The position numbers were made by a program, and so were the translations under genes. The notes under the pieces were generated by a model. The model saw only the letters and a program-made list of their open reading frames with translations, searched no databases and was not told the DNA's origin. Below, in pieces: positions 1,876-52,730 of a stretch of 64,000 nt of DNA. Position 1 is the first letter of the stretch. The number at the start of each line of letters is the position of its first letter. Source of the DNA: Escherichia coli (GTDB lineage: Bacteria; Pseudomonadota; Gammaproteobacteria; Enterobacterales; Enterobacteriaceae); NCBI RefSeq assembly GCF_030384885.1, contig NZ_CP128613.1; one strand, given 5' to 3'.

Positions 1876-1979
1876 ACGTTCCTCCTTTATATGAACTCAC
1901 CGGAGCAGGCTCCGGTGAGGTGTTGTGAACTTAAGTCTGGACGAAATGCCCGAAAACGAAAGTTTGAGGCGTAAAAAGC

Positions 1980-18675: not shown

Positions 18676-18766
18676 TAGCTTTCGTAGGCCTGATAAGACG
18701 CGACAGCGTCGCATCAGGCATTGTGCACGATTGCCGGATGCGGCGTGAACGCCTTATCCGGCCTGG
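18676..18766. repeat. REP/BIME element
   Basis: gtaggcctgataagacgcgacagcgtcgcatcaggc ... gccggatgcggcgtgaacgccttatccggcctg. Confidence 0.75.
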
Positions 18767-23563: not shown

Positions 23564-24256
23564 CTAGTGATAACCACACGCGGTCATAAAATCCGTAATC
23601 GCTTTTTCTGCATCAACCAGCACCTTTTCCAGTGGCTGATTGGCGTCGATATCAACCAGTTGTGCACCACCAAAGGTTAACTGTGGCGTTATGGCAATCT
23701 TTCTCGCCAGCGATTCCCGTTTATGGTCGGGTTTACGCGCGCAGGCAACTTCAAGGTCAACATTGAGTTTGATAACCAGATCAGGCTTATGGCTCGCCAT
23801 CCAGTGAAATGCTTTACGTTCCTGGCTTGCCAGCCATGAGACAAACCGGCCGCCTTCAACGTTAGGTGGGAACACCGTACCATCGTAAGCGCCAGGAATT
23901 TGGTCCTGAGGATAACGATCGGTTAAGACAATCAGCCCGCGACGACGACAGGCGAGCATATGACGAAAGCGTAACAGTCGGCGGGCGACGAAAGCGGTGA
24001 TCACCAGGGCCGGAACCGGACCCGGCAATTTTTTTGCCGTTTTCACTTCATTTTTTTCAATAGTCTTGTGCAGAGACTTTCCCATCAACGGTAATTTTGT
24101 CACTGCACGACCGACATTTCCGGCCTGTTTTCCTAAATGAACTCTTTCGGCAGCACCATATTTTTCGACAACGGTAATAAGATGTTCACACACCGTTGAC
24201 TTGCCTGAACCATCGCTACCAATAACGGCAATTAATGGAGGTGTTATTGACTGCAT
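23564..24256 (-). CDS. yghT: P-loop NTPase (Walker [11 protein letters not shown]), YghR/S/T paralog family
   Basis: Track ORF 230 aa; shares Walker A, DRYPQ and ARKPDH motifs with the two downstream paralogs. Confidence 0.88.
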
Positions 24257-24429
24257 GAATATATCCTTAAATTTAAATATCCATCAAAAATATTTATTTG
24301 GTTAATATGTTTTTATGAAAGCGTAATTCAGGTCAATGTCACAATTAACCATTGTCACAATAAGGTTGAACGGATATTCTGAGCACGGACCACGTAATAT
24401 TCAATACATTATTTTCTGCCGGGTTTTTC

Positions 24430-25143
24430 GTGAATCAACGTAATATGTCAATAATTAATTCCACGCCAGTGCGTGTTATTGCCATTGTAGGATGTGATGG
24501 TTCAGGTAAATCGACCCTCACGGCAAGCCTAGTAAATGAACTGGCAGCAACAATGCCAACAGAACACATTTATCTCGGGCAATCGTCCGGGCGAATTGGC
24601 GAATGGATTTCACAGCTCCCTGTTATTGGCGCACCTTTTGGGCGTTATCTGCGAAGTAAAGCGGCACATGTGCACGAAAAGCCCTCCACACCGCCTGGCA
24701 ATATTACTGCGCTGGTTATTTATCTGCTTTCCTGCTGGCGGGCGTATAAGTTTCGCAAAATGTTGTGTAAAAGCCAGCAAGGCTATCTGCTCATCACCGA
24801 CCGCTACCCGCAGGTTGAAGTGCCGGGTTTTCGCTTTGATGGCCCGCAACTGGCAAAAAACACGGGCGGTAACGGCTGGATAAAAATGTTAAGACAGCGC
24901 GAGCTCAAACTTTACCAATGGATGGCGTCTTATTTGCCCGTATTGTTGATTCGTCTTGGCATTGATGAACAAACCGCGTTTGCGCGTAAACCTGACCACC
25001 AACTGGCGGCGTTACAGGAAAAAATCGCTGTTACGCCGCAACTGACATTCAATGGCGCAAAGATCCTTGAACTGGATGGTCGGCAACCAGCCGATGAAAT
25101 TCTGCAAGCGTCACTACGCGCAATTCACGCCGCGCTTTCCTGA
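24430..25143 (+). CDS. yghS: P-loop NTPase (Walker A VGCDGSGKST), YghR/S/T paralog family
   Basis: Track ORF 237 aa, GTG start. Confidence 0.88.
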   Translation: MNQRNMSIINSTPVRVIAIVGCDGSGKSTLTASLVNELAATMPTEHIYLGQSSGRIGEWISQLPVIGAPFGRYLRSKAAHVHEKPSTPPGNITALVIYLLSCWRAYKFRKMLCKSQQGYLLITDRYPQVEVPGFRFDGPQLAKNTGGNGWIKMLRQRELKLYQWMASYLPVLLIRLGIDEQTAFARKPDHQLAALQEKIAVTPQLTFNGAKILELDGRQPADEILQASLRAIHAALS

Positions 25144-25173
25144 TCACCAAATGGATAGGGGATGATTTAACGA

Positions 25174-25932
25174 ATGGATGCACTACAAACACAAACTGTT
25201 AATAGTACAACCGCGCCGCAGCCCAACTACATTCCGGGGCTGATTGCGGTGGTCGGGTGTGATGGCACCGGTAAATCCACACTGACCACTGACCTGGTGA
25301 AATCGCTGCAACAACACTGGCAAACCGAGCGCCGCTATCTGGGGCTGCTCTCCGGCGAAGACGGCGACAAAATCAAACGGTTGCCGCTCGTTGGCGTCTG
25401 GCTGGAACGGCGACTGGCGGCCAAATCCTCGAAAACCCAAAGCATGAAAACCAAATCTCCGGCGCTATGGGCGGCGGTGATTATGTACTGCTTCTCGCTG
25501 CGAAGAATGGTGAATCTACGCAAGGTTCAGCGACTGGCGCAAAGTGGCGTTCTGGTGGTCAGCGATCGCTTCCCGCAGGCTGAAATTTCGGGCTTTTATT
25601 ATGACGGACCGGGGATTGGCGTCGAGCGTGCGACCGGGAAAATCAGCATGTTTCTGGCACAGCGCGAACGGCGTTTATACCAAAAAATGGCGCAATACCG
25701 TCCTGAATTAATTATTCGTTTGGGGATTGATATTGATACTGCCATCTCCCGCAAGCCTGACCATGACTATGCCGAGCTGCAGGACAAAATCGGTGTCATG
25801 TCGACGATTGGCTATAACGGCACAAAAATTCTTGAGATTGATTCCAGAGCGCCCTACAGCGAAGTGCTGGAACAGGCACAGAAGGCGGTTTCTCTGGTTG
25901 CAATCGTTTCTGACCGCCGAAGTTTAACTTAA
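25174..25932 (+). CDS. yghR: P-loop NTPase (Walker A VGCDGTGKST), YghR/S/T paralog family
   Basis: Track ORF 252 aa MDALQTQTVNSTTAPQPNYIPGLIAVVGCDGTGKST... Confidence 0.88.
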   Translation: MDALQTQTVNSTTAPQPNYIPGLIAVVGCDGTGKSTLTTDLVKSLQQHWQTERRYLGLLSGEDGDKIKRLPLVGVWLERRLAAKSSKTQSMKTKSPALWAAVIMYCFSLRRMVNLRKVQRLAQSGVLVVSDRFPQAEISGFYYDGPGIGVERATGKISMFLAQRERRLYQKMAQYRPELIIRLGIDIDTAISRKPDHDYAELQDKIGVMSTIGYNGTKILEIDSRAPYSEVLEQAQKAVSLVAIVSDRRSLT

Positions 25933-25977: not shown

Positions 25978-27327
25978 TTGGCGGGGTTTAACATCAAACA
26001 TTGGTTTGCAGATGGCGCGTTTCGCACCATTATTCGCAATAGCGCCTGGTTAGGCTCCAGTAATGTCGTGAGCGCTTTGCTGGGTCTGTTGGCGCTCTCG
26101 TGTGCCGGTAAAGGGATGACGCCCGCCATGTTTGGCGTACTGGTGATTGTGCAATCGTACGCCAAGTCGATCAGCGATTTTATTAAGTTTCAGACATGGC
26201 AGCTGGTGGTTCAGTACGGAACGCCAGCCTTGACCAATAATAATCCGCAGCAATTTCGCAATGTCGTCTCATTTTCCTTCTCGTTGGATATCGTCAGCGG
26301 CGCGGTGGCGATTGTCGGCGGCATTGCCTTACTCCCTTTTCTTTCCCATTCATTAGGTCTGGATGACCAAAGCTTTTGGCTGGCAGCGCTGTATTGCACG
26401 CTCATTCCTTCAATGGCTTCCTCCACACCGACCGGCATTCTGCGTGCGGTAGATCGCTTCGATTTGATTGCTGTACAGCAGGCGACGAAACCTTTTCTGC
26501 GCGCAGCGGGGAGCGTCGTAGCCTGGTATTTTGATTTTGGTTTTGCGGGTTTTGTTATTGCCTGGTACGCATCGAATCTGGTTGGCGGCACCATGTACTG
26601 GTGGTTTGCCGCGCGCGAATTACGCCGCAGAAATATCCATAACGCCTTCAAATTGAATCTGTTTGAGTCTGCCCGACACATTAAAGGCGCGTGGAGTTTT
26701 GTCTGGTCAACCAACATTGCCCACTCCATCTGGTCGGCACGTAACTCGTGCAGCACAGTGTTGGTGGGGATCGTGTTAGGACCCGCTGCCGCCGGGTTAT
26801 TTAAAATCGCCATGACATTCTTCGATGCCGCCGGAACGCCAGCGGGTTTACTGGGCAAAAGTTTTTACCCAGAGGTAATGCGTTTAGATCCGCGTACCAC
26901 CAGACCGTGGTTGTTAGGCGTGAAGTCCGGTTTACTGGCGGGCGGAATCGGTATTCTGGTGGCGCTCGCGGTGTTGATCGTCGGCAAGCCGCTCATTTCG
27001 CTGGTGTTTGGCGTTAAGTATCTCGAAGCGTATGACCTGATTCAGGTAATGCTTGGCGCAATTGTGATTTCGATGCTGGGCTTCCCACAGGAGTCATTGC
27101 TATTGATGGCGGGAAAACAGCGCGCTTTTCTCGTGGCGCAAACCATCGCCTCAATCGGCTACATCGTATTGCTGTTCATGTTCTGTCATCTGTTTGGCGT
27201 GCTGGGGGCTGCATTTGCTTACTTCGGTGGGCAATGTCTGGATGTGGTGCTCTCGTTAATTCCAACCTTAAAGGCATTTTTTCAGCGCCATTCCTTGCTT
27301 TATAACGCAGCCGGAGAGAAATCCTGA
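25978..27327 (+). CDS. yghQ: polytopic inner membrane protein, MOP/Wzx-type flippase-like; start codon uncertain (first ATG in frame at 26116)
   Basis: Track ORF 449 aa (non-ATG start at 25978); many hydrophobic helices; stop overlaps next gene start (TGATG). Confidence 0.8.
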   Translation: MAGFNIKHWFADGAFRTIIRNSAWLGSSNVVSALLGLLALSCAGKGMTPAMFGVLVIVQSYAKSISDFIKFQTWQLVVQYGTPALTNNNPQQFRNVVSFSFSLDIVSGAVAIVGGIALLPFLSHSLGLDDQSFWLAALYCTLIPSMASSTPTGILRAVDRFDLIAVQQATKPFLRAAGSVVAWYFDFGFAGFVIAWYASNLVGGTMYWWFAARELRRRNIHNAFKLNLFESARHIKGAWSFVWSTNIAHSIWSARNSCSTVLVGIVLGPAAAGLFKIAMTFFDAAGTPAGLLGKSFYPEVMRLDPRTTRPWLLGVKSGLLAGGIGILVALAVLIVGKPLISLVFGVKYLEAYDLIQVMLGAIVISMLGFPQESLLLMAGKQRAFLVAQTIASIGYIVLLFMFCHLFGVLGAAFAYFGGQCLDVVLSLIPTLKAFFQRHSLLYNAAGEKS

Positions 27328-28151
27328 TGATGAGAAAATATTTCCCGCTTGAGGCGAGCGAGCGTCTATTTATTGCAGTTGAAGAAGATGATGTCGTTGA
27401 TGCGCAGGTCAGTTTACCGCCGACTATCGCAACAGGTTGTACCACCGAAATCATTCATGATAATTACGCGTTATGCCTGCAATTCTGGCTGAATGGCGTT
27501 GATCGTCAGGAATTACTGCGTTTAATCCACAAACAAGCCAAAGGCGAGGGGCTTACGGCTGACGAGCGTAAACAGTTTAAATATATGCGGGCGCGTTATA
27601 AGCATCTGCGTTTCGCTCAGCGACTGTATCTGAAAAAACACAAGGCAGGATTTTTATTCGGCAAAACGACGGTATGTCTGGGCCATTTTCAGGATGGTTT
27701 CCGTAACGGTAAAAAAAATATTGTGTCGTATTACGGCAACCTGTTACGGATTTATTTAAGCTCTCCGGTCTGGTCGTTGGTGAACTATTCATTACGCCAT
27801 AGCCAGTTAGAAAGCGTAAGCGGTTTTATTGCCTATCGGCAAAAGCAAATGCATACCCTGAAAGAGATAATTGCCAAACCGCGACTAACCGGCAGGGAAT
27901 TTCATGATGTGCGAAAAATCATCAGCCAGCAGGTTTCTTATTACGACACCCTAAGATCGCTTGATCCTGAAAAAAAAGAAGCGTTACAGATTTCCCGCTT
28001 CCTCGCCGCCATTAATGGCCTGATGGGGGATAAACACGACGACATGGTGGCGGATGATATGGAAAACCGCCAGTCGTATGATGCACCGATGGCGCTGGAT
28101 AGCGATATTCGTCAGCGCTTAGAACTGCTGATTTCGCGTTTTCCGCTATAA
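27327..28151 (+). CDS. hypothetical soluble protein, no recognisable motif
   Basis: Track ORF 274 aa MMRKYFPLEASERLFIAVEEDD...; start overlaps yghQ stop; codon usage protein-like. Confidence 0.6.
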   Translation: MMRKYFPLEASERLFIAVEEDDVVDAQVSLPPTIATGCTTEIIHDNYALCLQFWLNGVDRQELLRLIHKQAKGEGLTADERKQFKYMRARYKHLRFAQRLYLKKHKAGFLFGKTTVCLGHFQDGFRNGKKNIVSYYGNLLRIYLSSPVWSLVNYSLRHSQLESVSGFIAYRQKQMHTLKEIIAKPRLTGREFHDVRKIISQQVSYYDTLRSLDPEKKEALQISRFLAAINGLMGDKHDDMVADDMENRQSYDAPMALDSDIRQRLELLISRFPL

Positions 28152-28159
28152 CCGGAGCA

Positions 28160-28723
28160 ATGATGTCATCTCGTTTGATTATTGCGCTGATTATCATGCT
28201 CTTAGCCCCGGGTGTGCAGGCACACAATTTCGTCACGGGTAAAACGGTTACCCCTGTTTATATCCAGGAAGGCGGCGAGCTGCTTCTGAATAGCGACGAC
28301 GAAATTCACTACCAAAAGTGGAACAGCACACAGCTGGCGGGAAAAGTCCGCATTATTCAGTATATCGCCGGGCGTAAGTCGGCGAAGAAAAAGAACTCAC
28401 TGTTAATTAAAGCGGTTGAAGCGGCAAACTTTCCGCAGGATCGTTTTCAGCCCACCACCATTGTGAACACCGATGATGCCATCTTTGGTACTGGCTATTT
28501 TGTCGTTGGCAAAATCGAAAAAAATAAACGCCGCTATCCGTGGGCGCAATTCGTTATTGACGGCAATGGACAGGGACGCGTTGCCTGGCGGTTGCCGGAG
28601 CAGAGTTCAACCATTCTGGTGCTGAATAAAGCCGGGCAAATTCAGTGGGCAAAGGACGGCAGCCTGACGCCGGAAGAGGTAGATCATGTCATTGCGCTGG
28701 CGCAGAAGCTGATCAATGAATAA
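28160..28723 (+). CDS. YtfJ-family periplasmic protein (paralog of core ytfJ), signal peptide MMSSRLIIALIIMLLAPGVQA
   Basis: Track ORF 187 aa; collinear similarity to remembered E. coli YtfJ (shared stretches VVQYIAGR.., TTIVNTDDAI, YPW.QFV.D, WAKDG.LTPEEV). Confidence 0.75.
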   Translation: MMSSRLIIALIIMLLAPGVQAHNFVTGKTVTPVYIQEGGELLLNSDDEIHYQKWNSTQLAGKVRIIQYIAGRKSAKKKNSLLIKAVEAANFPQDRFQPTTIVNTDDAIFGTGYFVVGKIEKNKRRYPWAQFVIDGNGQGRVAWRLPEQSSTILVLNKAGQIQWAKDGSLTPEEVDHVIALAQKLINE

Positions 28724-28752: not shown

Positions 28753-29823
28753 ATGAAGCTGGTTGAACACTACATCATGCGTGGTACTCGCCGTCTGGTG
28801 CTGATTATCGTCGGTTTTCTGATCTTTATTTTCGCCAGCTACTCCGCACAGCGTTATCTGACCGAAGCGGCAAATGGGACATTAGCTCTTGATGTTGTGC
28901 TGGATATTGTTTTCTACAAGGTGCTGATTGCACTGGAGATGTTGTTACCTGTTGGACTGTATGTGTCAGTTGGCGTGACGCTAGGGCAGATGTATACCGA
29001 CTCGGAAATTACCGCTATTTCTGCGGCGGGGGGGAGTCCGGGACGCTTGTACAAAGCCGTTCTTTATCTGGCGATACCGCTAAGTATTTTTGTCACCCTT
29101 CTGTCGATGTATGGTCGTCCGTGGGCTTATGCGCAGATTTATCAACTGGAGCAACAGTCGCAGTCGGAGCTGGATGTTCGCCAGTTGCGGGCAAAGAAAT
29201 TTAACACTAACGATAACGGACGAATGATCCTTTCGCAGACGGTTGATCAGGATAATAATCGCCTGACTGACGTGCTGATTTATACTTCTACTGCCAATCG
29301 AACCCGTATTTTCCGCGCCCGTTCGGTTGATGTAGTTGACCCATCACCCGAGAAACCGACCGTTATGTTGCATAACGGGACCGCCTATCTTCTCGATCAT
29401 CAGGGACGTGACGACAACGAACAGATCTACCGTAATCTGCAATTGCATCTGAATCCGCTGGATCAAAGCCCTAACGTCAAACGCAAAGCAAAATCGGTCA
29501 CGGAGCTGGCGCGCTCCGCCTTTCCTGCCGATCATGCCGAACTGCAATGGCGACAAAGCCGTGGCCTGACAGCATTGTTGATGGCGCTGCTGGCCATTTC
29601 ATTAAGTCGGGTAAAACCGCGGCAAGGGCGATTTTCAACGTTATTGCCACTGACGTTGCTGTTTGTTGCCATTTTTTATGGCGGCGACGTCTGCCGTACG
29701 CTGGTGGCTAACGGCGCGATTCCCCTCATTCCTGGTTTGTGGTTAGTACCCGGACTCATGCTAATGGGCCTGCTGATGCTGGTCGCACGCGACTTCTCTT
29801 TGCTGCAGAAATTTTCCCGATGA
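28753..29823 (+). CDS. LptF-like permease (YjgP/YjgQ family), paralog of core lptF
   Basis: Track ORF 356 aa; N-terminal TM bundle, conserved YTDSEITAISAAG segment resembling LptF LYTESEITVMHACG, large periplasmic insert, C-terminal TMs. Confidence 0.8.
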   Translation: MKLVEHYIMRGTRRLVLIIVGFLIFIFASYSAQRYLTEAANGTLALDVVLDIVFYKVLIALEMLLPVGLYVSVGVTLGQMYTDSEITAISAAGGSPGRLYKAVLYLAIPLSIFVTLLSMYGRPWAYAQIYQLEQQSQSELDVRQLRAKKFNTNDNGRMILSQTVDQDNNRLTDVLIYTSTANRTRIFRARSVDVVDPSPEKPTVMLHNGTAYLLDHQGRDDNEQIYRNLQLHLNPLDQSPNVKRKAKSVTELARSAFPADHAELQWRQSRGLTALLMALLAISLSRVKPRQGRFSTLLPLTLLFVAIFYGGDVCRTLVANGAIPLIPGLWLVPGLMLMGLLMLVARDFSLLQKFSR

Positions 29824-30899
29824 ATGTTTTCAGTCGCTATTTAATCCGTCATCTCTTTCTCGGTTTTGCCGCCGCCGCAGGGCTATTGCTGCCGCTTTTT
29901 ACTACCTTCAACCTGATTAACGAACTGGATGATGTCAGCCCGGGTGGTTATCGCTGGACTCAGGCGGTGCTGGTGGTGCTGATGACCTTACCGCGCACAC
30001 TGGTCGAACTTTCGCCGTTTATCGCCTTATTGGGGGGGATTGTCGGCTTGGGGCAGTTATCGAAAAACAGTGAGCTTACCGCCATTCGCAGCACGGGGTT
30101 TTCTATCTTCCGTATTGCACTGGTGGCGCTGGTTGCCGGGATATTGTGGACTGTTTCATTAGGCGCGATAGATGAGTGGGTGGCGTCGCCATTGCAGCAA
30201 CAGGCGCTGCAAATCAAATCGACTGCCACTGCGTTGGGGGAGGACGATGACATTACCGGCAATATGCTGTGGGCCAGGCGTGGTAATGAATTTGTGACGG
30301 TGAAATCGCTGAACGAGCAGGGCCAGCCGGTGGGCGTGGAGATATTTCATTACCGCGACGATCTCTCGCTCGAATCCTACATTTATGCACGCAGTGCCAC
30401 CATTGAAGACGACAAAACGTGGATCCTGCATGGTGTGAATCATAAAAAATGGCTGAATGGCAAAGAAACGCTGGAAACATCTGATAATCTTGCCTGGCAA
30501 TCGGCCTTCACCAGTATGAATCTTGAAGAGTTATCGATGCCGGGAAATACTTTTTCTGTCCGTCAACTTAATCATTACATCCATTATTTGCAGGAAACCG
30601 GGCAACCCAGCAGCGAATACCGCCTTGCACTGTGGGAAAAACTGGGACAACCCATCTTGACCCTGGCGATGATTTTGCTGGCTGTGCCGTTTACCTTTAG
30701 TGCCCCGCGTTCGCCTGGGATGGGTAGCCGTCTCGCTGTAGGCGTCATCGTGGGCTTACTCACCTGGATCAGCTATCAAATCATGGTCAATCTGGGATTG
30801 CTATTTGCGTTGAGCGCACCTGTTACCGCGCTCGGTTTACCGATAGCGTTTATGCTGGTGGCGTTGAGCCTGGTGTATTGGTATGACAGTCAACATTAA
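29820..30899 (+). CDS. LptG-like permease (YjgP/YjgQ family), paralog of core lptG
   Basis: Track ORF 29739..30899; start trimmed to MNVFSRYLIRHLFLGF (359 aa), ATGA overlap with upstream permease; segment NSELTAIRSTGFS resembles LptG. Confidence 0.8.
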   Translation: MNVFSRYLIRHLFLGFAAAAGLLLPLFTTFNLINELDDVSPGGYRWTQAVLVVLMTLPRTLVELSPFIALLGGIVGLGQLSKNSELTAIRSTGFSIFRIALVALVAGILWTVSLGAIDEWVASPLQQQALQIKSTATALGEDDDITGNMLWARRGNEFVTVKSLNEQGQPVGVEIFHYRDDLSLESYIYARSATIEDDKTWILHGVNHKKWLNGKETLETSDNLAWQSAFTSMNLEELSMPGNTFSVRQLNHYIHYLQETGQPSSEYRLALWEKLGQPILTLAMILLAVPFTFSAPRSPGMGSRLAVGVIVGLLTWISYQIMVNLGLLFALSAPVTALGLPIAFMLVALSLVYWYDSQH

Positions 30900-30933: not shown

Positions 30934-32106
30934 TTACTGCTTCAGAGTAGCAAATGCCTGAATGATGGCATCGATTTGCTCACGAGTGTGGGCAGCGTTT
31001 ACGCTACAGCGCAGCAGCGTGATGCCTGCAGGCGCGGCAGGTGGCAGGATAAGATTCACATAAACGCCCAGCGAAATAAGCTCGCGCCAGATGCGTAAAC
31101 CTTCCTCTTTCGAACCGATTATCACTGGCACTACCGGGCTAATATGTGAACTTAACTCGTAACCCAGTTTTTGCAGACCGTCATACAGATGGTTGGCGTT
31201 ATCCATCAGCTTTTGCCGCAACTCTGGTTGTGAGGCAATGGTTCTTAACGACGAGCGCACGGTCGCAATGCAGGACGGAGAAGGAGAGGCGGTAAAAATA
31301 TACGGGCGGCTGCCGTAGCGCAGCACTTCCATCGCTTCCGAACCGACAGCAAAACCGCCAATCGAGGCCAGACTTTTACTGAAAGTACCAACGATAATAT
31401 CCACATCATCTTCAACGCCAACGGCTTCAGCCAGTCCGCGCCCCGTTGCGCCTAACACGCCAAACGAATGCGCTTCATCGACAATCAAATAACCACCGAG
31501 ACGACGTTTGATATCAACAATTTCCGCCAGCGGCGCAATGTCACCGAGCATACTGTAGATGCCTTCAACGATGATAATCGCCTCTTTTGCCCGTTCACCG
31601 AGGCGAACCATGCGCCGTTCCAGATCTTTAGCATCGTTATGGCGGAAACGAATAATTTCCGCTCCACCGAGAGAACAGGCGTCATAAATACTGGCGTGGC
31701 TGTCGGCATCCAGTAACACTACGGCGTTATGGTCGGCAAGTGCGCTGATGACACCTAAATTAGCGGTATAACCGGTTGAAAAAACGATAGCGGTAGGGCG
31801 ATTGAAAAACTCGGCAATTTCTTTCTCTAACGCCAGATGTGGCGCATAGCTGCCATTAGCCATACGAGAACCGGTAGTGCCGGTGCCTTGGGCCGCTAAC
31901 GCTGCCTGACCTTCGGCGATGGCATCATGATTGAAGGTTAAACCGAGATAATTATTGGTCCCGGCCAGGATCACGTTTTTATCGCCGATCCGGCCTTCGG
32001 TGGCGGAATACACTTCATCAATACAGGTACCAAACGGCGTTAACCCGTTGTCACTAAATTGCAGTCGCTCGCCAGCAAGGCGCGCATATTTATCGTATAG
32101 CCCCAT
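30934..32106 (-). CDS. PLP-dependent alpha-oxoamine synthase, serine palmitoyltransferase-like (third AOS paralog besides bioF and kbl)
   Basis: Track ORF 390 aa; PLP-lysine motif IVGTFSKSLASIGG, DEAHSFG motif, glycine-rich GTGTTGSR segment; TAATG overlap with upstream ACP. Confidence 0.85.
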   Translation of the reverse strand: MGLYDKYARLAGERLQFSDNGLTPFGTCIDEVYSATEGRIGDKNVILAGTNNYLGLTFNHDAIAEGQAALAAQGTGTTGSRMANGSYAPHLALEKEIAEFFNRPTAIVFSTGYTANLGVISALADHNAVVLLDADSHASIYDACSLGGAEIIRFRHNDAKDLERRMVRLGERAKEAIIIVEGIYSMLGDIAPLAEIVDIKRRLGGYLIVDEAHSFGVLGATGRGLAEAVGVEDDVDIIVGTFSKSLASIGGFAVGSEAMEVLRYGSRPYIFTASPSPSCIATVRSSLRTIASQPELRQKLMDNANHLYDGLQKLGYELSSHISPVVPVIIGSKEEGLRIWRELISLGVYVNLILPPAAPAGITLLRCSVNAAHTREQIDAIIQAFATLKQ

Positions 32107-32354
32107 TATTTATTCTCCAGCCATGGAAGTAGAGTTTCCATTAATTGCGCAGGGGTTTTGACATCCAGCAGAATATTAATAGGAATGGAAATATCGAATC
32201 TGTCTTCCAGCATCATTAAGAGATCCATCACTTTGATCGACTCCAGGCCAAGATCGTTGACGAGATCGCTGTCGGGCTTAATTTCCACACCGTTTTCGAC
32301 CAAATCCTGTAAACAGGAAAGGATGTAATCCATTACTATTTCACGATTTACCAT
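32106..32354 (-). CDS. acyl carrier protein (dedicated), candidate phosphopantetheine site in DLGLESIKVMDL
   Basis: Track ORF 82 aa; acidic four-helix ACP-like sequence; position between reductase and AOS. Confidence 0.7.
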   Translation of the reverse strand: MVNREIVMDYILSCLQDLVENGVEIKPDSDLVNDLGLESIKVMDLLMMLEDRFDISIPINILLDVKTPAQLMETLLPWLENK

Positions 32355-32385: not shown

Positions 32386-33300
32386 TCAAAATAGCCCGTT
32401 GCGTAATGCGTGTTCCAGGCTAATCCCGGGAAACCAATTAATATCTTCAGAAATACGGTTATTACTTGCTGACCAGTCGGTGTGGGTTAATTCACGGATT
32501 TTCGAGCGGGTCAGCATAGGTTCTTTACCTGCCAGGCGACTCAACGCGGTACTGATATCCGCAAGGCAGGTGAGTACCGACAGAGGAATACCAACCATTC
32601 GAACGGAACCGCAACGGGCGTCGGCGGCAAGTTGCTGTACGCGTTGCCAGTCATAGCCGCCGGCGACGCCATCGCATAATTCATAGGTTTGCGTCTGTAC
32701 AGTTTCGGCGCTTAACCACTGCCCCACGGCTTGCGCGAAATCGGTGACGTGCAGGAAAGAGAGCTGTGTATCTGGCGCACCAAGTCGTGGCAGCAGGCCG
32801 CGCAGCATCCAGTCAAACAGCGGTTTTAACTCTTTATCGCCGGGACCATACACGGCTGTCGGGCGAAAAATGCCCAGCGTAATTTCGTCAGCCATTGCGG
32901 TCAGTCGTTGTTCGGCGACGTGTTTGGAATTTGCGTACCAGGAGAGTTCGGGATGGCGCGCCGCCAGCGAAGAGATAAACAGAAAACGTTGGCAAAAGCC
33001 GCTCTCTTTTGCCGCTTGCATCAGGCGCAGGCTGCCGTCAACGTTACAGCGGGTAAAAATCTCTTCTTTGTGTCCGCGCACTTGCCCGGCGCAATGGACC
33101 ACCGCGCTGGCTCCGGCAACCAGTTCGCTAAGCGAATGTGTATCTTCCAGCGAACCGCGCACCCAGATGAGATTATCATTGACGTGAGCGCGGGCAGTAC
33201 GCGTCAATGCGCGAACGTGAAAGCCGCGGGCGAGCAGGTTATCGATAATATATTTACCGATAAACCCGGTAGCGCCCGTCACCGCGACAGTTTGATTCAT
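32386..33300 (-). CDS. NAD(P)-dependent reductase of the epimerase/dehydratase SDR type (candidate 3-keto-sphinganine/ceramide reductase)
   Basis: Track ORF 304 aa; N-terminal VAVTGATGFIGKY Rossmann motif, YANSK (YxxxK); ATGA overlap with upstream FAAL. Confidence 0.8.
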   Translation of the reverse strand: MNQTVAVTGATGFIGKYIIDNLLARGFHVRALTRTARAHVNDNLIWVRGSLEDTHSLSELVAGASAVVHCAGQVRGHKEEIFTRCNVDGSLRLMQAAKESGFCQRFLFISSLAARHPELSWYANSKHVAEQRLTAMADEITLGIFRPTAVYGPGDKELKPLFDWMLRGLLPRLGAPDTQLSFLHVTDFAQAVGQWLSAETVQTQTYELCDGVAGGYDWQRVQQLAADARCGSVRMVGIPLSVLTCLADISTALSRLAGKEPMLTRSKIRELTHTDWSASNNRISEDINWFPGISLEHALRNGLF

Positions 33301-35015
33301 GCCATTGATTCCTGCACATGAAGGCTTGCAGCATAACGTTTTTTCGCTTCCGCACGGGCAGGCTTGCCGGAGGACGTTCGGGGAATACTGTGGGGCGGCA
33401 ACAGATCGATAGCCGCTGTTACGCCAAATTCGCTTTGGATCCGTGCTGCCAGTGCGTGGATAAGCTGCCCACGACGTTCTTCGTCGCTGATCCTACACTG
33501 GATCTGCAAAATGATTTTTTCCTGGGCGGTAACAAAAGCAATCGCATCGCCAGAATGAATTTCCGGTTCCTGTTCCGCAATATATTCAATATCCTGCGGC
33601 CAGATATTACGGCCACGAATAATAATCAGATCTTTAATGCGCCCGGTGACATACAGATAACCGTCCAGCAGATAACCGAGGTCGCCGGTATCTAACCAGC
33701 CCGTCGCGGCAATCTCGTCTTGCGAAACCTGGTCGCCAAAGTAACCGCTCATCAGGCTGGGGCCGGAGATGCAAATATGGCCTACCACACGTTCCGCGAC
33801 TGGCATACCTGCTTCATTGCGGATTTCAATGCCATGTTCCGGCAACGCTTTACCGCAGTTGACGAAAGTCGATACGGCGCGTGTTTCAGCACCCGGCGTG
33901 ACGGCTTTGCCCTGATATTCAAGAATGTCGCGATCCACTTCGTTAACCACAACCCCGGAGGCTTCATCAGAGAAGCTGACAGCCAGCGCATTTTCTGCCA
34001 GTCCGTAGCACGGCATGAAAGTTTTATCGTCAAAGTTAACCTGACGGAAACATTCAGCGAATTGATGGAGTTGTTCTGCGGAGATCGGCTCAGCACCAAT
34101 ACCAGCAACGCGCCAGCAGGAAAGATCCAGTTCAGCGAGATCTTTTTCATTCACGCGGCGCTGGCACAATTCATAGCCAAACGGCGGCGCAACGGAAACG
34201 GTGCCGCGATTTTTACTGATCAATTTAAGCCATTGCAGAGGACGCATGGCAAAATCCTGAGTGCGCAAATAATCTACTGAGAGCTGCGTGGCGACGGGGG
34301 TCAGGAGAAAGCCGACCAGTCCCATATCATGGTAGAAAGGCAGCCAGGAGACGCAGCGGTCGCCAGGGCGTAATTTAATGCCATCGTGGCTTATAGCACG
34401 TAGATTAGCCATCACTTCGCGATGGGTGATAATGACGCCACGGGGAAAACGGGTGCTGCCGGAGGTGTACTGGAGGTAGGCGATATCGTTCGGAACTGGA
34501 CGCTGGAGTACAACATCGGCTTCCGGTAATGCCTTAAACCAGGCGTGGCTTAAAACATGTAATTCGGGGTTGTTATGCGTAGCAGCATTGACCAGTGGCA
34601 ACCACTCATCACCAGTGATAATGGCTGCGGGCTGGCAACTTGCCAGTAGACCCTGCAGTTTGGCGCTCCAGGAATCCCGCTGACCGACGCCCATTGGAAT
34701 TGCCAACGGGACGGCGACTAAGCCGGCATACTGGCAGGCAAAAAAAGCCTCTACAAACCCGCTACTCGTTTCGGCAATCAGCGCCACGCGATCGCCTTTT
34801 TTCAGATTCAGTGATAACAACCGCTTCGCACCAGCTTCGGCACGCGCTTTTAACGTCTGATATTCCAGTTGATCTTCAAGTTGGCAACGTCTGTCATAAA
34901 AATTCATTCCGGCGCTACTCAGAGCGGCGTAGTCCAAAGCATCAACCAGCGTTGGAAAATCGGCATAGCGCATAGGTAGGGAATGCGTAAAGATGTTATT
35001 AGACATATACACCAC
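33297..35015 (-). CDS. fatty acyl-AMP ligase / acyl-ACP synthetase (adenylate-forming); start at GTG 35015 or ATG ~35006
   Basis: Track ORF 572 aa; AMP-binding signature YTSGSTRFPRGV, second motif TGDLGY; first gene of the minus-strand operon. Confidence 0.85.
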   Translation of the reverse strand: MVYMSNNIFTHSLPMRYADFPTLVDALDYAALSSAGMNFYDRRCQLEDQLEYQTLKARAEAGAKRLLSLNLKKGDRVALIAETSSGFVEAFFACQYAGLVAVPLAIPMGVGQRDSWSAKLQGLLASCQPAAIITGDEWLPLVNAATHNNPELHVLSHAWFKALPEADVVLQRPVPNDIAYLQYTSGSTRFPRGVIITHREVMANLRAISHDGIKLRPGDRCVSWLPFYHDMGLVGFLLTPVATQLSVDYLRTQDFAMRPLQWLKLISKNRGTVSVAPPFGYELCQRRVNEKDLAELDLSCWRVAGIGAEPISAEQLHQFAECFRQVNFDDKTFMPCYGLAENALAVSFSDEASGVVVNEVDRDILEYQGKAVTPGAETRAVSTFVNCGKALPEHGIEIRNEAGMPVAERVVGHICISGPSLMSGYFGDQVSQDEIAATGWLDTGDLGYLLDGYLYVTGRIKDLIIIRGRNIWPQDIEYIAEQEPEIHSGDAIAFVTAQEKIILQIQCRISDEERRGQLIHALAARIQSEFGVTAAIDLLPPHSIPRTSSGKPARAEAKKRYAASLHVQESMA

Positions 35016-35377: not shown

Positions 35378-36520
35378 ATGGAATGCGATCTGCTGATGAT
35401 TAAAATTGAAAAAGTAATTAATAAAAATGACATTAAGGCATTTATCGCTTTTCCGTCATCACTTTATCCCGATGATCCAAACTGGATACCCCCTTTGTTC
35501 ATTGAACGCAGCGAGCATTTGTCGGCGAAGAATCCGGGGACGGACCATATTATCTGGCAGGCGTGGGTAGCAAAAAAAGCGGGGCAGATAGTCGGGCGGA
35601 TTACCGCGCAAATCGATACCTTGCACCGCGAGCGTTACGGTGACGATACCGGTCATTTTGGCATGATTGACGCCATTGATGATCCGCAGGTTTTTGCCGC
35701 TTTGTTTGGCGCAGCGGAAGCATGGTTGAAGTTACAAGGTGCCAGTATGATCAGCGGGCCTTTCAGCCTGAATATCAATCAGGAAAGCGGATTACTGATT
35801 GAAGGTTTCGACACTCCGCCCTGTGCGATGATGCCGCACGGTAAACCGTGGTATGCCGCGCATATTGAACAATTGGGTTATCACAAAGGTATTGATTTAC
35901 TGGCGTGGTGGATGCAACGAACCGATCTCACTTTCTCTCCGGCGCTAAAAAAACTGATGGATCAGGTACGCAAAAAGGTGACCATTCGTTGCATCAATCG
36001 TCAGCGGTTTGCTGAAGAGATGCAGATCCTGCGTGAGATTTTCAACTCTGGCTGGCAGCACAACTGGGGATTTGTGCCGTTTACCGAACATGAATTCGCT
36101 ACCATGGGCGATCAACTAAAGTATCTGGTACCGGACGATATGATCTACGTCGCTGAGATTGGTTCTGCACCCTGCGCGTTTATTGTCGGCTTGCCGAACA
36201 TCAACGAGGCGATTGCCGATCTGAACGGATCGCTCTTTCCCTTCGGCTGGGCAAAATTGCTGTGGCGCTTAAAAGTCAGCGGTGTGCGAACTGCGCGAGT
36301 GCCGCTGATGGGCGTGCGTGACGAGTATCAGTTCAGCCGCATCGGCCCGGTGATTGCGCTGTTATTGATTGAAGCCTTACGCGATCCGTTTGCTCGCCGG
36401 AAGATCGATGCGCTGGAAATGTCATGGATCCTCGAAACCAATACAGGCATGAATAACATGCTGGAACGCATTGGAGCGGAGCCGTACAAGCGTTACCGAT
36501 TGTATGAAAAGCAGATTTAA
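35378..36520 (+). CDS. yghO: YghO, full-length; candidate N-acyltransferase (GNAT/FemAB-like fold suspected, not verified)
   Basis: Track ORF 380 aa MECDLLMIKIEKVINKNDIKAF...; position between the lipid operon and glcC. Confidence 0.75.
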   Translation: MECDLLMIKIEKVINKNDIKAFIAFPSSLYPDDPNWIPPLFIERSEHLSAKNPGTDHIIWQAWVAKKAGQIVGRITAQIDTLHRERYGDDTGHFGMIDAIDDPQVFAALFGAAEAWLKLQGASMISGPFSLNINQESGLLIEGFDTPPCAMMPHGKPWYAAHIEQLGYHKGIDLLAWWMQRTDLTFSPALKKLMDQVRKKVTIRCINRQRFAEEMQILREIFNSGWQHNWGFVPFTEHEFATMGDQLKYLVPDDMIYVAEIGSAPCAFIVGLPNINEAIADLNGSLFPFGWAKLLWRLKVSGVRTARVPLMGVRDEYQFSRIGPVIALLLIEALRDPFARRKIDALEMSWILETNTGMNNMLERIGAEPYKRYRLYEKQI

Positions 36521-44067: not shown

Positions 44068-44422
44068 TAGCATCAAAAAAGCCCCGGCAAGTTTTATTGT
44101 CGGGGCTATGATAGTAACTGCGGTAGTATATTTATCCCGGAAATAACCGGGGCGATTATCAGGGTTTAACAATATTAAATACCCGTAGCGCATCACTAGC
44201 GGGACTAAAACAACATTATGGACATCTTTACGATACTCTGCGCCTGTGTGTGCGGAACAGAAACCCTTACCCGATATACTTGTTATGCCAGAGGTAGCAA
44301 TTGCGTTAGCGGCGTGCTGTTGCTGTAAAGTATAACGCCTATATTTTACAGTTCAGTCCTCTTTTGCTTATTACAAACCTTAAATATATCAAGTATATAA
44401 AGATAATAAGAGACTGAACAAT

Positions 44423-46140: not shown

Positions 46141-46599
46141 CTTCATTCTTTGTTCATTACATTATTCTGTCTTATTAATTTAAAATCATTTCCTGCTTTA
46201 TTATCTATACAGTAATAATGTATTGCATTCAGATAACATACTAAATAATTAAGGGTGTGAGAATATCTGTTTTTTTATCACGCAAAACAAGTCTGTATTA
46301 ATTATGTTCGCTTGATGAGCAAACACCGTTCTATCTGTTGCTTTTGCAATCTAAATCGTTAAAACTATCAACGAATTTATATGGTTACGCTGTGAAAAGT
46401 TGTTGATTTTTTGTTTGTTGAAATTTCGTAAAAATAACCTGGCAGATATCGTATAGGGGATATTCTTATAGATTTCACCTGTTTTTCTATAAATGATGCC
46501 GTTTTCTTAAGAATGGAGGAAGTTATTAGAGAAAATAAAGCATAAAACTATTTTCCCAGTTACAAATTCTTTAATTTTATTTTGTCACTTGCGTTATTA

Positions 46600-47592
46600 A
46601 TGAATAAGAAATTTAAATATAAAAAATCGCTTTTAGCGGCTATTTTAAGCGCAACCTTATTAACCGGTTGTGATGGCGGTGGTTCAGGATCGTCCTCCGA
46701 TACGCCGTCTGTAGATTCTGGAGCAGGGACTTTGCCGGAAGTGAAACCCGATCCAATACCAACCCCGGAACCGACACCTGAGCCGACGCCGGACCCAGAA
46801 CCTACACCAGACCCGACACCCGATCCAGAGCCGACACCAGAACCGGAGCCAGAACCTGTTCCTACGAAAACGGGGTATCTGACCCTGGGCGGAAGCCAGC
46901 GGGTAACTGGTGCTACCTGTAATGGTGAATCCAGCGACGGCTTTACCTTTACGCCAGGCAATACCGTGAGTTGTGTGGTGGGCAGTACGACCATTGCAAC
47001 ATTCAACACCCAGTCAGAGACTGCGCGTAGCCTGCGTGCGGTTGACAAAGTGTCGTTTAGCCTTGAGGACGCGCAGGAGCTGGCGGATTCTGCAAATAAG
47101 AAAACCAACGCCATCTCTCTGGTGACGTCCAGCGACAGTTGCCCCGCAGATGCAGAACAGCTTTGTCTTACTTTCTCGTCAGTGGTTGATCGCGCGCGTT
47201 TTGAAAAACTGTATAAGCAAATTGATCTGGCAACAAACGATTTCAGCAAGCTGGTCAATGAAGAGGTGGAAAACAATGCTGCGACTGATAAAGCGCCGTC
47301 CACCCATACCTCAACGGTAGTGCCAGTCACGACAGAGGGAACAAAACCGGATCTGAACGCGTCCTTCGTGTCGGCTAACGCGGAACAGTTTTATCAGTAT
47401 CAACCAACTGAAATCATTCTTTCCGAAGGCCATCTGGTGGATAGCCTGGGGAACGGTGTTGCTGGCGTAGACTACTACACCAATTCAGGCCGTGGCGTAA
47501 CTGACGAAAACGGTAAATTCTCCTTTAGCTGGGGCGAAACCATCTCCTTTGGTATCGATACCTTTGAACTGGGCTCAGTACGCGGCAATAAG
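46600..47592 (+). pseudogene. yghJ: sslE/yghJ lipoprotein mucinase, 5' fragment only (~330 of ~1500 codons), then out-of-context tail to stop at 47664
   Basis: Track ORF 46582..47664; MNKKFKYKKSLLAAILSATLLTGCDGGG lipobox, PEPT-repeat linker, collinear with SslE N-terminus up to ...ISFGIDTFELGSVRGNK, after which similarity stops. Confidence 0.8.
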
Positions 47593-47603
47593 ATCCGCAG
47601 AAA

Positions 47604-47861
47604 ATTTTTAACTATATCCAGCTTACGCCTGTGCGTAAGGAGGGAATTGTCGGTTATGCAGTGAAGCCGGGGGCAGATCGTTCTCTGTTCGATGCCAGCG
47701 GTTTCAGGGAAGGCGATATCGCCATTGCGCTCAATCAGCAGGATTTCACTGATCCACGAGCAATGATTGCTCTGATGCGGCAGTTACCTTCAATGGATTC
47801 CATTCAACTTACGGTTTTACGCAAGGGTGCGCGCTACGACATTTCCATCGCGCTGCGCTAA
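47604..47861 (+). pseudogene. gspC: gspC (T2SS-beta) 3' fragment encoding only the C-terminal PDZ-like region
   Basis: Frame continuing into track ORF 47631..47861 reads ...NYIQLTPVRKEGIVGYAVKPGADRSLFDASGFREGDIAIALNQQDFTDPRAMIALMRQLPSMDSIQLTVLRKGARYDISIALR; no 5' part present. Confidence 0.7.
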
Positions 47862-47890
47862 CCGCATTTAATCCAGGAGAATCATTCATC

Positions 47891-48807
47891 GTGTTTTGGC
47901 GTGATATTACGTTGTCGGCCTGGCGTAAGAAGACAACTGGCCTCAAAACAAAAAAGCGTTTACTGCCGCTGGTGCTGGCAGCGGCATTATGCAGTTCACC
48001 GGTCTGGGCGGAAGAAGCCACTTTCACCGCTAATTTTAAAGATACCGACCTGAAATCGTTCATCGAAACCGTCGGCGCTAACCTTAATAAAACCATCATT
48101 ATGGGGCCGGGCGTACAGGGGAAAGTGAGTATTCGTACCATGACCCCACTCAATGAACGCCAGTATTACCAGCTATTCCTTAACCTGCTGGAAGCACAGG
48201 GGTATGCCGTCGTACCGATGGAAAACGACGTGCTGAAGGTGGTGAAATCCAGCGCCGCGAAAGTCGAGCCGCTGCCGCTGGTCGGTGAAGGCAGCGACAA
48301 CTACGCGGGCGATGAAATGGTCACCAAAGTAGTGCCGGTACGTAATGTGTCGGTCCGCGAACTGGCACCGATTTTGCGCCAGATGATCGACAGCGCAGGC
48401 TCAGGCAACGTTGTTAATTACGATCCCTCCAACGTAATTATGCTCACCGGACGCGCCTCCGTCGTAGAGCGCCTGGCGGTCTGATGGACGATCAGGCGGG
48501 AGAAAGCGTGGCGAAAGTGCCGCTGCTGGGCGATATCCCGTTGATTGGTAACCTGTTTAAATCGACGGCGGATAAAAAAGAAAAACGTAACCTGATGGTG
48601 TTTATCCGCCCGACCATTCTGCGTGATGGTATGGCGGCAGACGGCGTGTCGCAGCGCAAATATAACTATATGCGCGCCGAACAGATCTATCGCGATGAGC
48701 AAGGCTTAAGCCTGATGCCGCACACCGCGCAGCCGATATTGCCTGCGCAAAATCAGGCTCTACCGCCGGAAGTTCGTGCGTTCCTTAATGCCGGGAGAAC
48801 GCGTTAA
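47891..48807 (+). pseudogene. gspD: gspD secretin with large internal deletion/frameshift (N0-domain fragment 47891..48484 plus C-terminal fragment 48484..48807)
   Basis: Track ORFs of 197 aa (signal peptide + N0 domain, ends ...VNYDPSNVIMLTGRASVVERLAV) and 107 aa (secretin C-terminal motif VPLLGDIPLIGNLF) in different frames; intact GspD is ~650 aa. Confidence 0.8.
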
Positions 48808-50300
48808 TGGTGCCTGTAGCACAGGAAACCACTGCTAACACCGTGCGTCTGCCCTACAGTTTCAGCCGTCGGTTTAGCCTGGTGGCATGGTGCGAAGCGT
48901 CGCTGGAGATCCTCCATGTGCATCCGTTGTCGCTCTCTGTTTTGCAGGAGCTGCAACGGGGGCTGAACGCGCCCTTTACGCTGCGGCAAATCGACGAAGC
49001 CGAATTTGAACAGCGGCTGAATGCGGTCTGGCAACGGGACTCTTCCGAGGCCCGCCAGCTGATGGAAGATCTCGGTTCTGCTGAGGACTTTTTTACCCTC
49101 GCGGAAGAACTGCCGGAAACGGAAGATCTGCTGGAAAGTGACGATGATGCGCCGATCATCAAACTGATCAACGCCATGCTGGCAGAGGCGATTAAAGAAG
49201 GCGCTTCGGATATCCACATCGAGACGTTTGAAAAGAGTCTGGTGATCCGTTTTCGCGTTGACGGCACATTACATGAAATGCTGCGTCCGGGGCGCAAACT
49301 GGCCTCGCTGCTGGTATCGCGTATTAAGGTGATGGCACGGCTGGATATCGCCGAAAAACGCGTACCGCAGGATGGGCGCATTGCGCTGCTGCTGGGCGGT
49401 CGGGCGATTGACGTGCGTGTCTCCACCATGCCTTCCGCCTGGGGCGAGCGCGTGGTGCTGCGACTGCTGGACAAAAACCAGGCCCGCCTGACGCTGGAAC
49501 GTCTGGGGTTGAGCCATGAACTGACCGCGCAGTTGCGCCAGCTACTGCACAAACCGCACGGCATCTTTCTGGTGACGGGGCCGACAGGTTCCGGCAAAAG
49601 CACCACGCTGTACGCCGGATTGCAGGAGCTGAACAACCACTCGCGCAACATTCTCACGGTTGAAGACCCCATCGAATACATGATTGAAGGGATCGGTCAG
49701 ACACAGGTTAACACCCGCGTCGGCATGACCTTCGCCCGTGGCCTGCGCGCGATTTTGCGTCAGGACCCGGATGTGGTGATGGTCGGTGAAATCCGCGATA
49801 CCGAAACCGCAGAAATCGCCGTCCAGGCGTCATTGACCGGACACCTGGTACTTTCCACGCTGCATACCAACACGGCGGTGGGGGCGATCACGCGTTTGCA
49901 GGATATGGGCGTTGAGCCTTTCCTGCTCTCTTCCAGCCTGACGGGCGTGATGGCGCAGCGACTTGTTCGCACACTGTGCACCGACTGCCGCCAGCCCGCG
50001 CCTGCCACTGATGAAGAAAAACGCCTGCTGGGAATTACCGATGTGCGTACCGTCACGCTGTACCATCCGCAGGGCTGCCCCGCCTGTAATCACAAAGGTT
50101 TTCGCGGGCGTACTGCCATCCATGAGCTGATCGTGGTAGACGCCACATTGCGTGATTTGATTCACCGTCAGGCCGGGGAACTGGAGCTGGAACGTTATGT
50201 CCGGCAACACTCTGCGGGTATCCGCAGCAACGGCATTGAGAAAGTGCTTGCCGGAGAAACCTCTCTCGATGAAGTGCTGCGGGTAACGATGGAGGCGTAA
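48807..50300 (+). CDS. gspE: type II secretion ATPase GspE (reading frame intact)
   Basis: Track ORF 497 aa; Walker [10 protein letters not shown], tetracysteine CTDC...CPAC motif. Confidence 0.9.
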
Positions 50301-50995
50301 TGGCACTGTTTTACTATCAGGCGTTACAGCGTAATGGTCGCAAAACCAAAGGCATGATTGAGGCGGATTCCGCGCGTCATGCCCGCCAGTTGTTGCGCGG
50401 TAAAGAGCTTATCCCCGTACACATTGAAGCCCGGATGAATGCTTCGTCAGGGGGAATGTTGCAGCGTCGGCGACACGCACATCGTCGTGTGGCGGCGGCA
50501 GATCTGGCGCTGTTCACTCGCCAACTGGCAACGCTGGTGCAGGCAGCAATGCCGCTGGAAACCTGCTTACAGGCGGTCAGTGAGCAAAGTGAAAAACTGC
50601 ATGTAAAAAGCCTCGGAATGGCGCTACGCAGCCGGATTCAGGAAGGTTACACCCTGTCGGACAGCCTGCGCGAACATCCCCGCGTCTTTGACTCCCTGTT
50701 TTGTTCGATGGTGGCTGCCGGAGAAAAATCCGGGCATCTCGACGTGGTGCTCAATCGCCTGGCGGATTACACCGAACAGCGACAGCGCCTGAAATCACGC
50801 CTGCTGCAGGCCATGCTCTATCCGCTGGTACTGCTGGTGGTGGCAACGGGCGTGGTCACTATTTTGCTGACGGCGGTGGTGCCGAAAATTATCGAACAGT
50901 TTGATCATCTCGGACACGCGCTGCCTGCCTCCACCCGCGCTCTTATCGCTATGAGCGACGCGTTGCAGACCAGCGGCGTTTACTGGCTGACCGGT
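50300..50995 (+). pseudogene. gspF: gspF inner-membrane platform protein, 3'-truncated (~230 of ~400 codons); ORF continues into unrelated sequence to 51088
   Basis: Track ORF 50300..51088 262 aa; GspF-like N-terminal cytoplasmic domain and first TM; last ~30 residues non-GspF. Confidence 0.75.
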
Positions 50996-51239
50996 GCCAT
51001 GTATCACGGGCCTGTGCATCCATTAAGGAAAGCATCCCTGAACGTTGCATCAGGTCACGCCAGATTTCGCGATCGAGATTGCGTGTGATGGCTTTCATTG
51101 CGGTTTCCGGTTTCTCCATCAGCCAGCAGCCGCAGCGAAAATCCTGTTTCATGGCCCAGTCCGGGGCGGCTTTACCGCCAATACTTTCTGTCATTGCTGA
51201 TATTTCAGCCAGTTGCCGGATAAGTGTGTCGTGTAGTGG

Positions 51240-52539
<1,300 letters not shown>

Positions 52540-52620
52540 TGATGTGGGGGGAATCTGGTTGAGTTCGGTAGAATTGATTTGGAGGCAGAACGCTTAAATT
52601 GTGGCGTTCTGAAACGAAAA

Positions 52621-52644
52621 ACGGACCTCCGTGGAGGTCCGTTG
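52621..52644 (-). terminator. pheV terminator hairpin
   Basis: aacggacctccgtggaggtccgtt perfect inverted repeat just 3' of the tRNA, followed on the minus strand by ttttcgtttc. Confidence 0.6.
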
Positions 52645-52654
52645 ATATGAATTT

Positions 52655-52730
52655 TGGTGCCCGGACTCGGAATCGAACCAAGGACACGGGGATTTTCAAT
52701 CCCCTGCTCTACCGACTGAGCTATCCGGGC
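52655..52730 (-). tRNA. pheV: tRNA-Phe (GAA anticodon)
   Basis: Reverse complement reads GCCCGGATAGCTCAGTCGGTAGAGCAGGGGATTGAAAATCCCCGTGTCCTTGGTTCGATTCCGAGTCCGGGCACCA, the E. coli tRNA-Phe sequence. Confidence 0.97.

Follow-up and report, generated by a model that had tools for sequence, protein, structure and literature searches.

Which pathway does a small acyl carrier protein (ACP) serve when its gene stands between a reductase gene and an alpha-oxoamine synthase (AOS) gene in Escherichia coli, and is its attachment site really unusual? The question was raised by an initial annotation, made from sequence alone, of the window, the whole stretch of 64,000 nucleotides analysed here. That annotation described an 82-residue open reading frame (ORF) between the reductase and the AOS and gave no strand for it; the ORF is present at 32106..32354, on the minus strand. 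We conclude, with a probability of roughly 95%, that this gene, acpR, encodes AcpR, a specialised ACP reserved for the first committed reaction of sphingolipid (ceramide) synthesis in bacteria. The protein is already known and is not a new finding. It is annotated in RefSeq (WP_000248097.1), where PGAP names it "acyl carrier protein", and it is identical in 82 of 82 residues to ECD_02853 (ACT44657.1) of BL21(DE3), with which it shares both accession and position. ECD_02853 was characterised in 2022 by Padilla-Gomez et al. (Front Microbiol 13:961041; PMC9386255), who named it AcpR_Ec.

The 82 codons of acpR translate to MVNREIVMDYILSCLQDLVENGVEIKPDSDLVNDLGLESIKVMDLLMMLEDRFDISIPINILLDVKTPAQLMETLLPWLENK, which contains the segment DLGLESIKVMDL. 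The product is acidic, with 16 Asp and Glu residues against 6 Lys and Arg and a calculated pI of 4.05. It matches the Pfam PP-binding model PF00550 far beyond chance (E 1.3e-13; 51.4 bits, cut-off 20.8 bits), and the match, from residue 9 to residue 74, spans profile positions 1-66 of 67 and so takes in the whole domain. AcpR is a member of the acyl carrier protein/PP-binding superfamily. Against the AcpP equivalog models (TIGR00517 and NF002148-51) it scores below every cut-off, with 35.6 bits where 71 are required and 33.7 bits for TIGR00517, where the cut-off is 70.45. NCBIfam holds no AcpR-specific model, and the matches of AcpR in that collection are to AcpP and DltC models, all under cut-off. 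An AAAGGTG resembling a Shine-Dalgarno sequence is found 13 nt from the acpR ATG. Because this spacing is above the usual, Met8 was considered as the true start; it was rejected because the alignment of relatives at 46-67% identity begins at residue 1, with M in the first consensus column.

An AlphaFold2 (AF2) model of AcpR, built with 72 relatives (mean pLDDT 85.9), has helices at residues 4-18, 39-53, 59-63 and 68-80, the four-helix ACP bundle with its short helix III, and Ser39 opens helix II. When the model was compared with the PDB by Foldseek, the best 50 matches were ACPs, nearly all at a TM score of about 0.7-0.85. A PDB search by sequence likewise returned acyl carrier proteins only, the best being 9iho_U (E 2.7e-7). 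In that search DLGLESIKVMDL, which comprises AcpR residues 34-45 (32220..32255, minus strand) and covers the end of loop I/II and, in the recognition helix (helix II), the N-terminal half, aligned with DLGLDSLDTVEV of mitochondrial ACP (9iho_U) and with DLGADSLDVVEL of 5h9g; its alignment with DLGLDSLDTVEV and with DLGADSLDTVEL of E. coli AcpP runs column for column. Ser39, whose codon TCG occupies 32238..32240 on the minus strand, stands opposite the attachment serine of solved ACPs in the PDB search and of K-12 AcpP in a BLASTP comparison.

Homologues were collected in two ways. The best 120 matches of a word-indexed search were all from Escherichia, Shigella and E. albertii and all at 94-100% identity. 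Since that listing carried no information on variation at the site, an exhaustive phmmer search with AcpR over 1.84 billion representatives was used instead, which found 753 relatives at E<=0.001. Site statistics were taken from the stand-alone ACPs among the best 150 of these 753; 107 of them, at less than 70% identity to AcpR, make up the diverged set referred to below. Ser39 is invariant in all 107, and also throughout the 72-sequence alignment behind the AF2 model. Its alignment, its invariance and its position at the start of helix II lead us to predict that Ser39 is the residue of AcpR that carries 4'-phosphopantetheine. The ACP-like size, acidity and helix pattern proposed in the initial annotation are thus borne out by the Pfam match, the pI, the aligned serine and the four-helix fold, and the serine itself falls where the attachment site of AcpP and of the solved ACPs lies.

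The neighbours of acpR on the minus strand are those of a sphingolipid pathway. Directly downstream lies spt (30934..32106, minus strand), encoding serine palmitoyltransferase, an AOS (Pfam Aminotran_1_2, E 8.9e-52). Its product passes the NCBIfam equivalog SerpalmtaseBetaP with 599.9 bits against a cut-off of 500, and scores also on the bioF, Kbl and alpha-hydroxyketone autoinducer synthase models, in each case below cut-off. Upstream are cerR/epi (32386..33300, minus strand), a homologue of ECD_02852 that encodes a reductase of the NAD-dependent epimerase/dehydratase family (Pfam Epimerase, E 1.9e-23), and then aasR (33297..35015, minus strand), a homologue of ECD_02851 that encodes an acyl-ACP synthetase of the fatty acyl-AMP ligase (FAAL) type (Pfam AMP-binding, E 2.2e-58; NCBIfam NF006624 fatty acyl-AMP ligase, 873 bits, cut-off 600). 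PGAP starts aasR at 35006, and the ORF reaches a GTG at 35015. In the PGAP annotation aasR is a "fatty acyl-AMP ligase", cerR an "NAD-dependent epimerase/dehydratase family protein" and acpR an "acyl carrier protein", and spt appears as "spt: serine palmitoyltransferase". The TAA stop of acpR and the ATG of spt share one base (TAATG, 32104-32108), and these two genes are translationally coupled; aasR and cerR overlap by 4 nt. Because of the two overlaps, aasR-cerR-acpR-spt look like one operon. A consensus scan for promoters and terminators over 30.7-35.5 kb found as many candidates as expected from shuffled sequence (6 vs 6.2; 7 vs 6.1) and so carries no information on transcription signals.

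Divergent from the aasR operon is yghO (35378..36520, plus strand), a homologue of ECD_02850 that encodes a putative N-acyltransferase or bacterial ceramide synthase (aca/cerS). YghO has no Pfam or NCBIfam match; the assignment as aca/cerS orthologue is that of two sphingolipid papers (PMC9386255, PMC11324152). In K-12 the same protein carries the label "putative DNA-binding transcriptional regulator", as against the N-acyltransferase or ceramide synthase of the sphingolipid literature. The order of genes is pitB, yghT, yghS, a yghR-like gene, a yghQ-like flippase gene, a gene for a 274-residue hypothetical protein, a YtfJ-family gene and a second lptF/lptG-like pair, followed by the minus-strand genes spt, acpR, epimerase and FAAL, then yghO, glcC and glcDEFGB. 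With acpR directly upstream of spt on the same strand, a FAAL-type synthetase gene two genes upstream of acpR, and a product identical to a characterised AcpR, the gene has the genomic and sequence features by which an AcpR is recognised.

The arrangement extends to distant relatives. Gene context was inspected for four informative members of the diverged set, and what is said here on linkage to spt or an AOS gene extends to those four. At 67% identity and with a Glu-Ser site, the relative on the unrelated contig L005 has the order FAAL-epimerase-ACP-AOS-YtfJ, with a 73%-identical yghO-like gene beside the operon. L011 (43% identity, Glu-Ser site) has the order epimerase-ACP-AOS-flippase-LptF/G, and L008 (45% identity, Asp-Ser site) keeps the ACP-AOS arrangement. 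Relatives at 67%, 45% and 43% identity thus retain the full gene order or, failing that, the ACP-AOS pair. The fourth, P0180, has a Ser-Ser site, and its gene is followed by an AOS gene amid different neighbours.

The initial annotation had called the context of the attachment serine atypical, placing it in LGLESI rather than in the Asp-Ser-Leu motif of housekeeping AcpP. The description of the residues stands: between the AcpR site DLGLESIKVMDL and the AcpP site DLGADSLDTVEL, Asp is replaced by Glu before the serine and Leu by Ile after it. In the diverged set (n=107) the serine is preceded by Asp in 85, by Glu and by Ser in 9 each, by Thr in 2 and by Ala and by Asn in 1 each, and it is followed by Leu in 46, Val in 33, Ile in 20 and Met in 7. 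Of 134 variants sampled within Escherichia, 120 retain DLGLESI. Because relatives with Glu-Ser and with Asp-Ser share synteny, and because Glu occurs in 9 and Ile in 20 of the 107, the Glu-Ser-Ile site is a conservative, recurrent and functional minority variant of Asp-Ser-Leu. The word atypical therefore overstates the case, and the variant is not what sets the family apart. What does separate the family from AcpP is, on helix II, S-x-[KAQ]-V-M, with K, A or Q at +2 (Asp in AcpP), V at +3 and M at +4 (87 of 107), and F-D-[IV]-S-[IV]-P after helix II, where the full family mark reads F-D-[IV]-S-[IV]-P-[LI].

A reading of AcpR as a pseudo-ACP that escapes modification, signalled by "ESI", was also considered and rejected, because the serine is invariant, Glu-Ser occurs in the syntenic relatives L005 and L011, and the identical protein has been labelled in published work.

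That published work deals with AcpR_Ec itself, and its evidence for this protein consists of labelling, gel shift and in vivo TLC, with mass spectrometry and kinetics coming from the Caulobacter protein (PMC9386255). According to the report, AcpR_Ec carries 4'-phosphopantetheine, as seen by in vivo incorporation of beta-[3H]alanine, and a purified apo/holo mixture was converted to the holo form in vitro by Sinorhizobium meliloti AcpS; phosphopantetheinylation, which the initial annotation had put forward as a check on its ACP assignment, is thus on record for the identical protein. Co-expression of AcpR_Ec, SPT_Ec and AasR_Ec in vivo gave a compound co-migrating with 3-oxo-sphinganine, SPT_Ec incorporated [14C]serine, and housekeeping AcpP was no substitute for AcpR (PMC9386255). 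Exchange with the Caulobacter system was one-way: AasR_Ec was inactive with AcpR_Cc in vivo, and AcpR_Cc was partly replaceable by AcpR_Ec (PMC9386255). In vitro, SPT_Ec preferred palmitoyl-AcpR_Cc to palmitoyl-CoA or palmitoyl-AcpP, and a Vibrio Aas did not acylate AcpR_Cc (PMC9386255). The authors' reading is that free fatty acids are channelled into sphingolipid synthesis, and they note that all five ceramide genes are clustered in E. coli as in Caulobacter (PMC9386255). A pathway-specific ACP that links the FAAL to the AOS apart from fatty-acid synthesis, as the initial annotation had suggested, therefore has experimental support in the identical AcpR_Ec (PMC9386255).

These observations fit a mechanism in which a phosphopantetheinyl transferase would place 4'-phosphopantetheine on Ser39, the residue that opens helix II, after translation. 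AasR would then adenylate a free long-chain fatty acid and load it onto the thiol of AcpR, leaving CoA and housekeeping AcpP unloaded, and serine palmitoyltransferase would condense acyl-AcpR with L-serine to form 3-oxo-sphinganine. For the onward conversion of 3-oxo-sphinganine to dihydroceramide, the proposed enzymes are YghO/CerS and the reductase CerR; for CerR the role in E. coli is presented as a proposal in the published account (PMC9386255). AasR_Ec would be expected to acylate AcpR_Ec directly in vitro; the published kinetics belong to the Caulobacter pair.

The distribution of the locus bears on how far this pathway is used. The 4.2 kb block is found in 4194 of 5426 complete E. coli genomes, 4067 of which hold at least 80% of it at 95-100% nucleotide identity; it is absent from the other 1232 (about 23%), K-12 included, and is therefore dispensable. 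In K-12 MG1655 the whole block is missing; in its place an IS5 element (insH9) is flanked on one side by a damaged yghO, whose 5' end it overlaps, and on the other by a truncated yghQ. The window is chromosomal E. coli DNA, and the 22.2 kb around acpR show 99.99% identity to E. coli strain 2013C-4282. Most E. coli strains, unlike K-12, thus carry a complete and conserved gene set for ceramide synthesis.

The alternative that best survives, though we think it improbable, is that acpR is intact but sits in a cryptic, effectively silent cluster, so that the ACP would have no physiological role in E. coli. BL21(DE3) with empty vectors showed neither sphingolipid nor 3-oxo-sphinganine (PMC9386255), and both the loss of the block to IS5 in K-12, with its absence from about 23% of complete genomes, and the promoter scan that did no better than shuffled sequence are compatible with silence. 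Against this stand the close conservation of the block across 4067 genomes, of AcpR among the 120 matches listed from E. coli, Shigella and E. albertii, and of DLGLESI in the sampled variants, the preservation of start/stop overlaps typical of a working operon, and the fact that the proteins are functional when expressed (PMC9386255). This alternative bears on expression and not on the molecular function of AcpR. The acpR operon is probably expressed natively in E. coli. The cited sphingolipid literature, so far as its accounts of E. coli go, contains no report of a sphingolipid in the wild type; strains with an intact operon (~77%) may make an AcpR-dependent ceramide-type lipid under conditions yet untried.

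A second alternative, that the AOS served by AcpR makes not a sphingolipid but another product, for example a CqsA/LqsA-type alpha-amino-ketone signal or an aminolipid with another amino acid or acyl chain, is very unlikely. A native product has never been observed in E. coli, as in the empty-vector BL21(DE3) of the published study (PMC9386255), the AOS draws sub-threshold scores from models for other AOS enzymes, and the Ser-Ser relative P0180 is encoded upstream of an AOS in other surroundings. The AOS, however, passes the SPT equivalog and no other AOS model, the three E. coli genes together yield the compound co-migrating with 3-oxo-sphinganine and SPT_Ec takes serine, and the five ceramide genes lie together, as they do in Caulobacter (PMC9386255).

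That AcpR might be a redundant AcpP paralogue active in type II fatty-acid synthesis has next to nothing to commend it beyond the common fold and the common acidic end of helix II (E50/D51), given scores under every AcpP equivalog cut-off, a local identity to K-12 AcpP (b1094, taken from the genome record) of just 14/35 across the site by BLASTP, a location away from the fab cluster, where acpP sits between fabG and fabF, the inability of AcpP to replace AcpR, and the lack of acylation of AcpR_Cc by Vibrio Aas (PMC9386255).

With AcpR read as the carrier dedicated to sphingolipid synthesis, the residues at its site invite a speculation about partner choice. Enterobacterial Glu38, together with Lys41, lies on the recognition helix and may make AcpR_Ec readable by AasR_Ec, or by a particular phosphopantetheinyl transferase, alone; if so, this would account for the report that exchange with the Caulobacter pair fails in one direction. 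The joint proposition, that Glu38 with Lys41 is a specificity determinant and that ~77% of strains make an AcpR-dependent ceramide-type lipid, is one we hold tentatively and regard as rather doubtful as a whole. The positions mapped here (D, E or S before the serine; K, A or Q followed by V-M after it) offer residues for engineering orthogonal ACP/ligase pairs.

On the far side of spt, and adjoining it, is a second, intact LptF/LptG-like permease pair (28753-30899, plus strand; Pfam LptF_LptG, E 1.9e-55 and 2.7e-69); no ABC ATPase gene is adjacent to this pair. In strain 2013C-4282 the RefSeq copy of this lptF is called "frameshifted"; the ORF in the window is intact and identical to that of BL21 in 352 of 356 residues. 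In L011, an unrelated contig, an LptF_LptG gene likewise adjoins the ACP and AOS genes. A role in moving sphingolipids from the inner membrane to the outer has been proposed for some genes of the Caulobacter cluster (PMC11324152). Farther on, a full-length yghQ, encoding a flippase-like protein of the MOP/Polysacc_synt type (25978-27327, plus strand), precedes genes for a 274-residue protein with no family match and then a YtfJ_HI0045-family protein (27327-28723, plus strand). Because the same trio flanks spt in the same order in L005, the evidence suggests a place in the lipid pathway, or in the export of its product, for flippase, 274-residue protein and YtfJ homologue. Beyond the trio, yghT (minus strand), yghS (plus) and the yghR-like gene (plus), at 23564-25932, encode adjacent paralogous P-loop proteins of 230-252 residues. 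PGAP names them "dTMP kinase", and they score 24-31 bits on the dTMP kinase equivalog, where the cut-off is 83. In L005 a similar gene, with a faint Thymidylate_kin match, and a DAGK_prokar gene lie beside the yghO-like gene. The three may be putative lipid or ceramide kinases of the sphingolipid pathway rather than nucleotide kinases.

Elsewhere in the window, in the region 46560-52730 downstream of glcA, the sslE/T2SS-beta (gsp) locus is decayed: it retains a 360-residue N-terminal sslE-like ORF, a 197-residue N-terminal fragment of GspD, an intact GspE and a 262-residue GspF fragment, and it also holds an IS3-family transposase (rve). Strain 2013C-4282 has a complete sslE-gspC-M operon at this position, so the window derives from another strain. 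The sRNA isrC (52299-52421) and a tRNA-Phe (52655-52730, minus strand) come after the decayed genes. Gathering-level Rfam matches identify three further sRNAs: C0719 between glcB and glcA (44122-44343, minus strand), naRNA4/CssrE (18687-18763, both strands) and ES173 (1914-1977, minus strand). These three are ordinary E. coli features unrelated to acpR.

Among known carrier proteins, the nearest to AcpR is AcpR_Ec of BL21(DE3), the identical protein, whose gene stands in the common order yghO, aasR-cerR-acpR-spt. The best-characterised counterpart is AcpR_Cc (CC_1163) of Caulobacter crescentus, likewise encoded directly upstream of spt and filling the same role; this likeness is one of published roles and gene position. 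AcpR_Cc bears 4'-phosphopantetheine, is loaded by a dedicated AasR and is the preferred thioester donor for SPT, but the two carriers are incompletely interchangeable, AasR_Cc working less well with AcpR_Ec than with its own partner (PMC9386255). With AcpP, AcpR shares the PP-binding fold, the helix II N-cap serine in its DLG-x-[DE]-S context, and the equivalents of E50/D51, F53, D54 and P58. The two part at K41, V42 and M43 of AcpR, which replace D, T and V of AcpP after the serine, and at FDISIP against FDTEIP; AcpP, unlike AcpR, is a poor SPT substrate (PMC9386255). NodF, AcpXL and RkpF, and the FAAL-ACP pairs of polyketide and lipopeptide pathways, resemble AcpR as dedicated carriers that sequester the acyl pool of one pathway from fatty-acid synthesis, and in the published tree NodF, AcpXL and RkpF group apart from the AcpRs (PMC9386255). 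The partners of these rhizobial ACPs and FAAL-ACP pairs are acyltransferases or PKS/NRPS modules, whereas the partner of AcpR is an alpha-oxoamine synthase.
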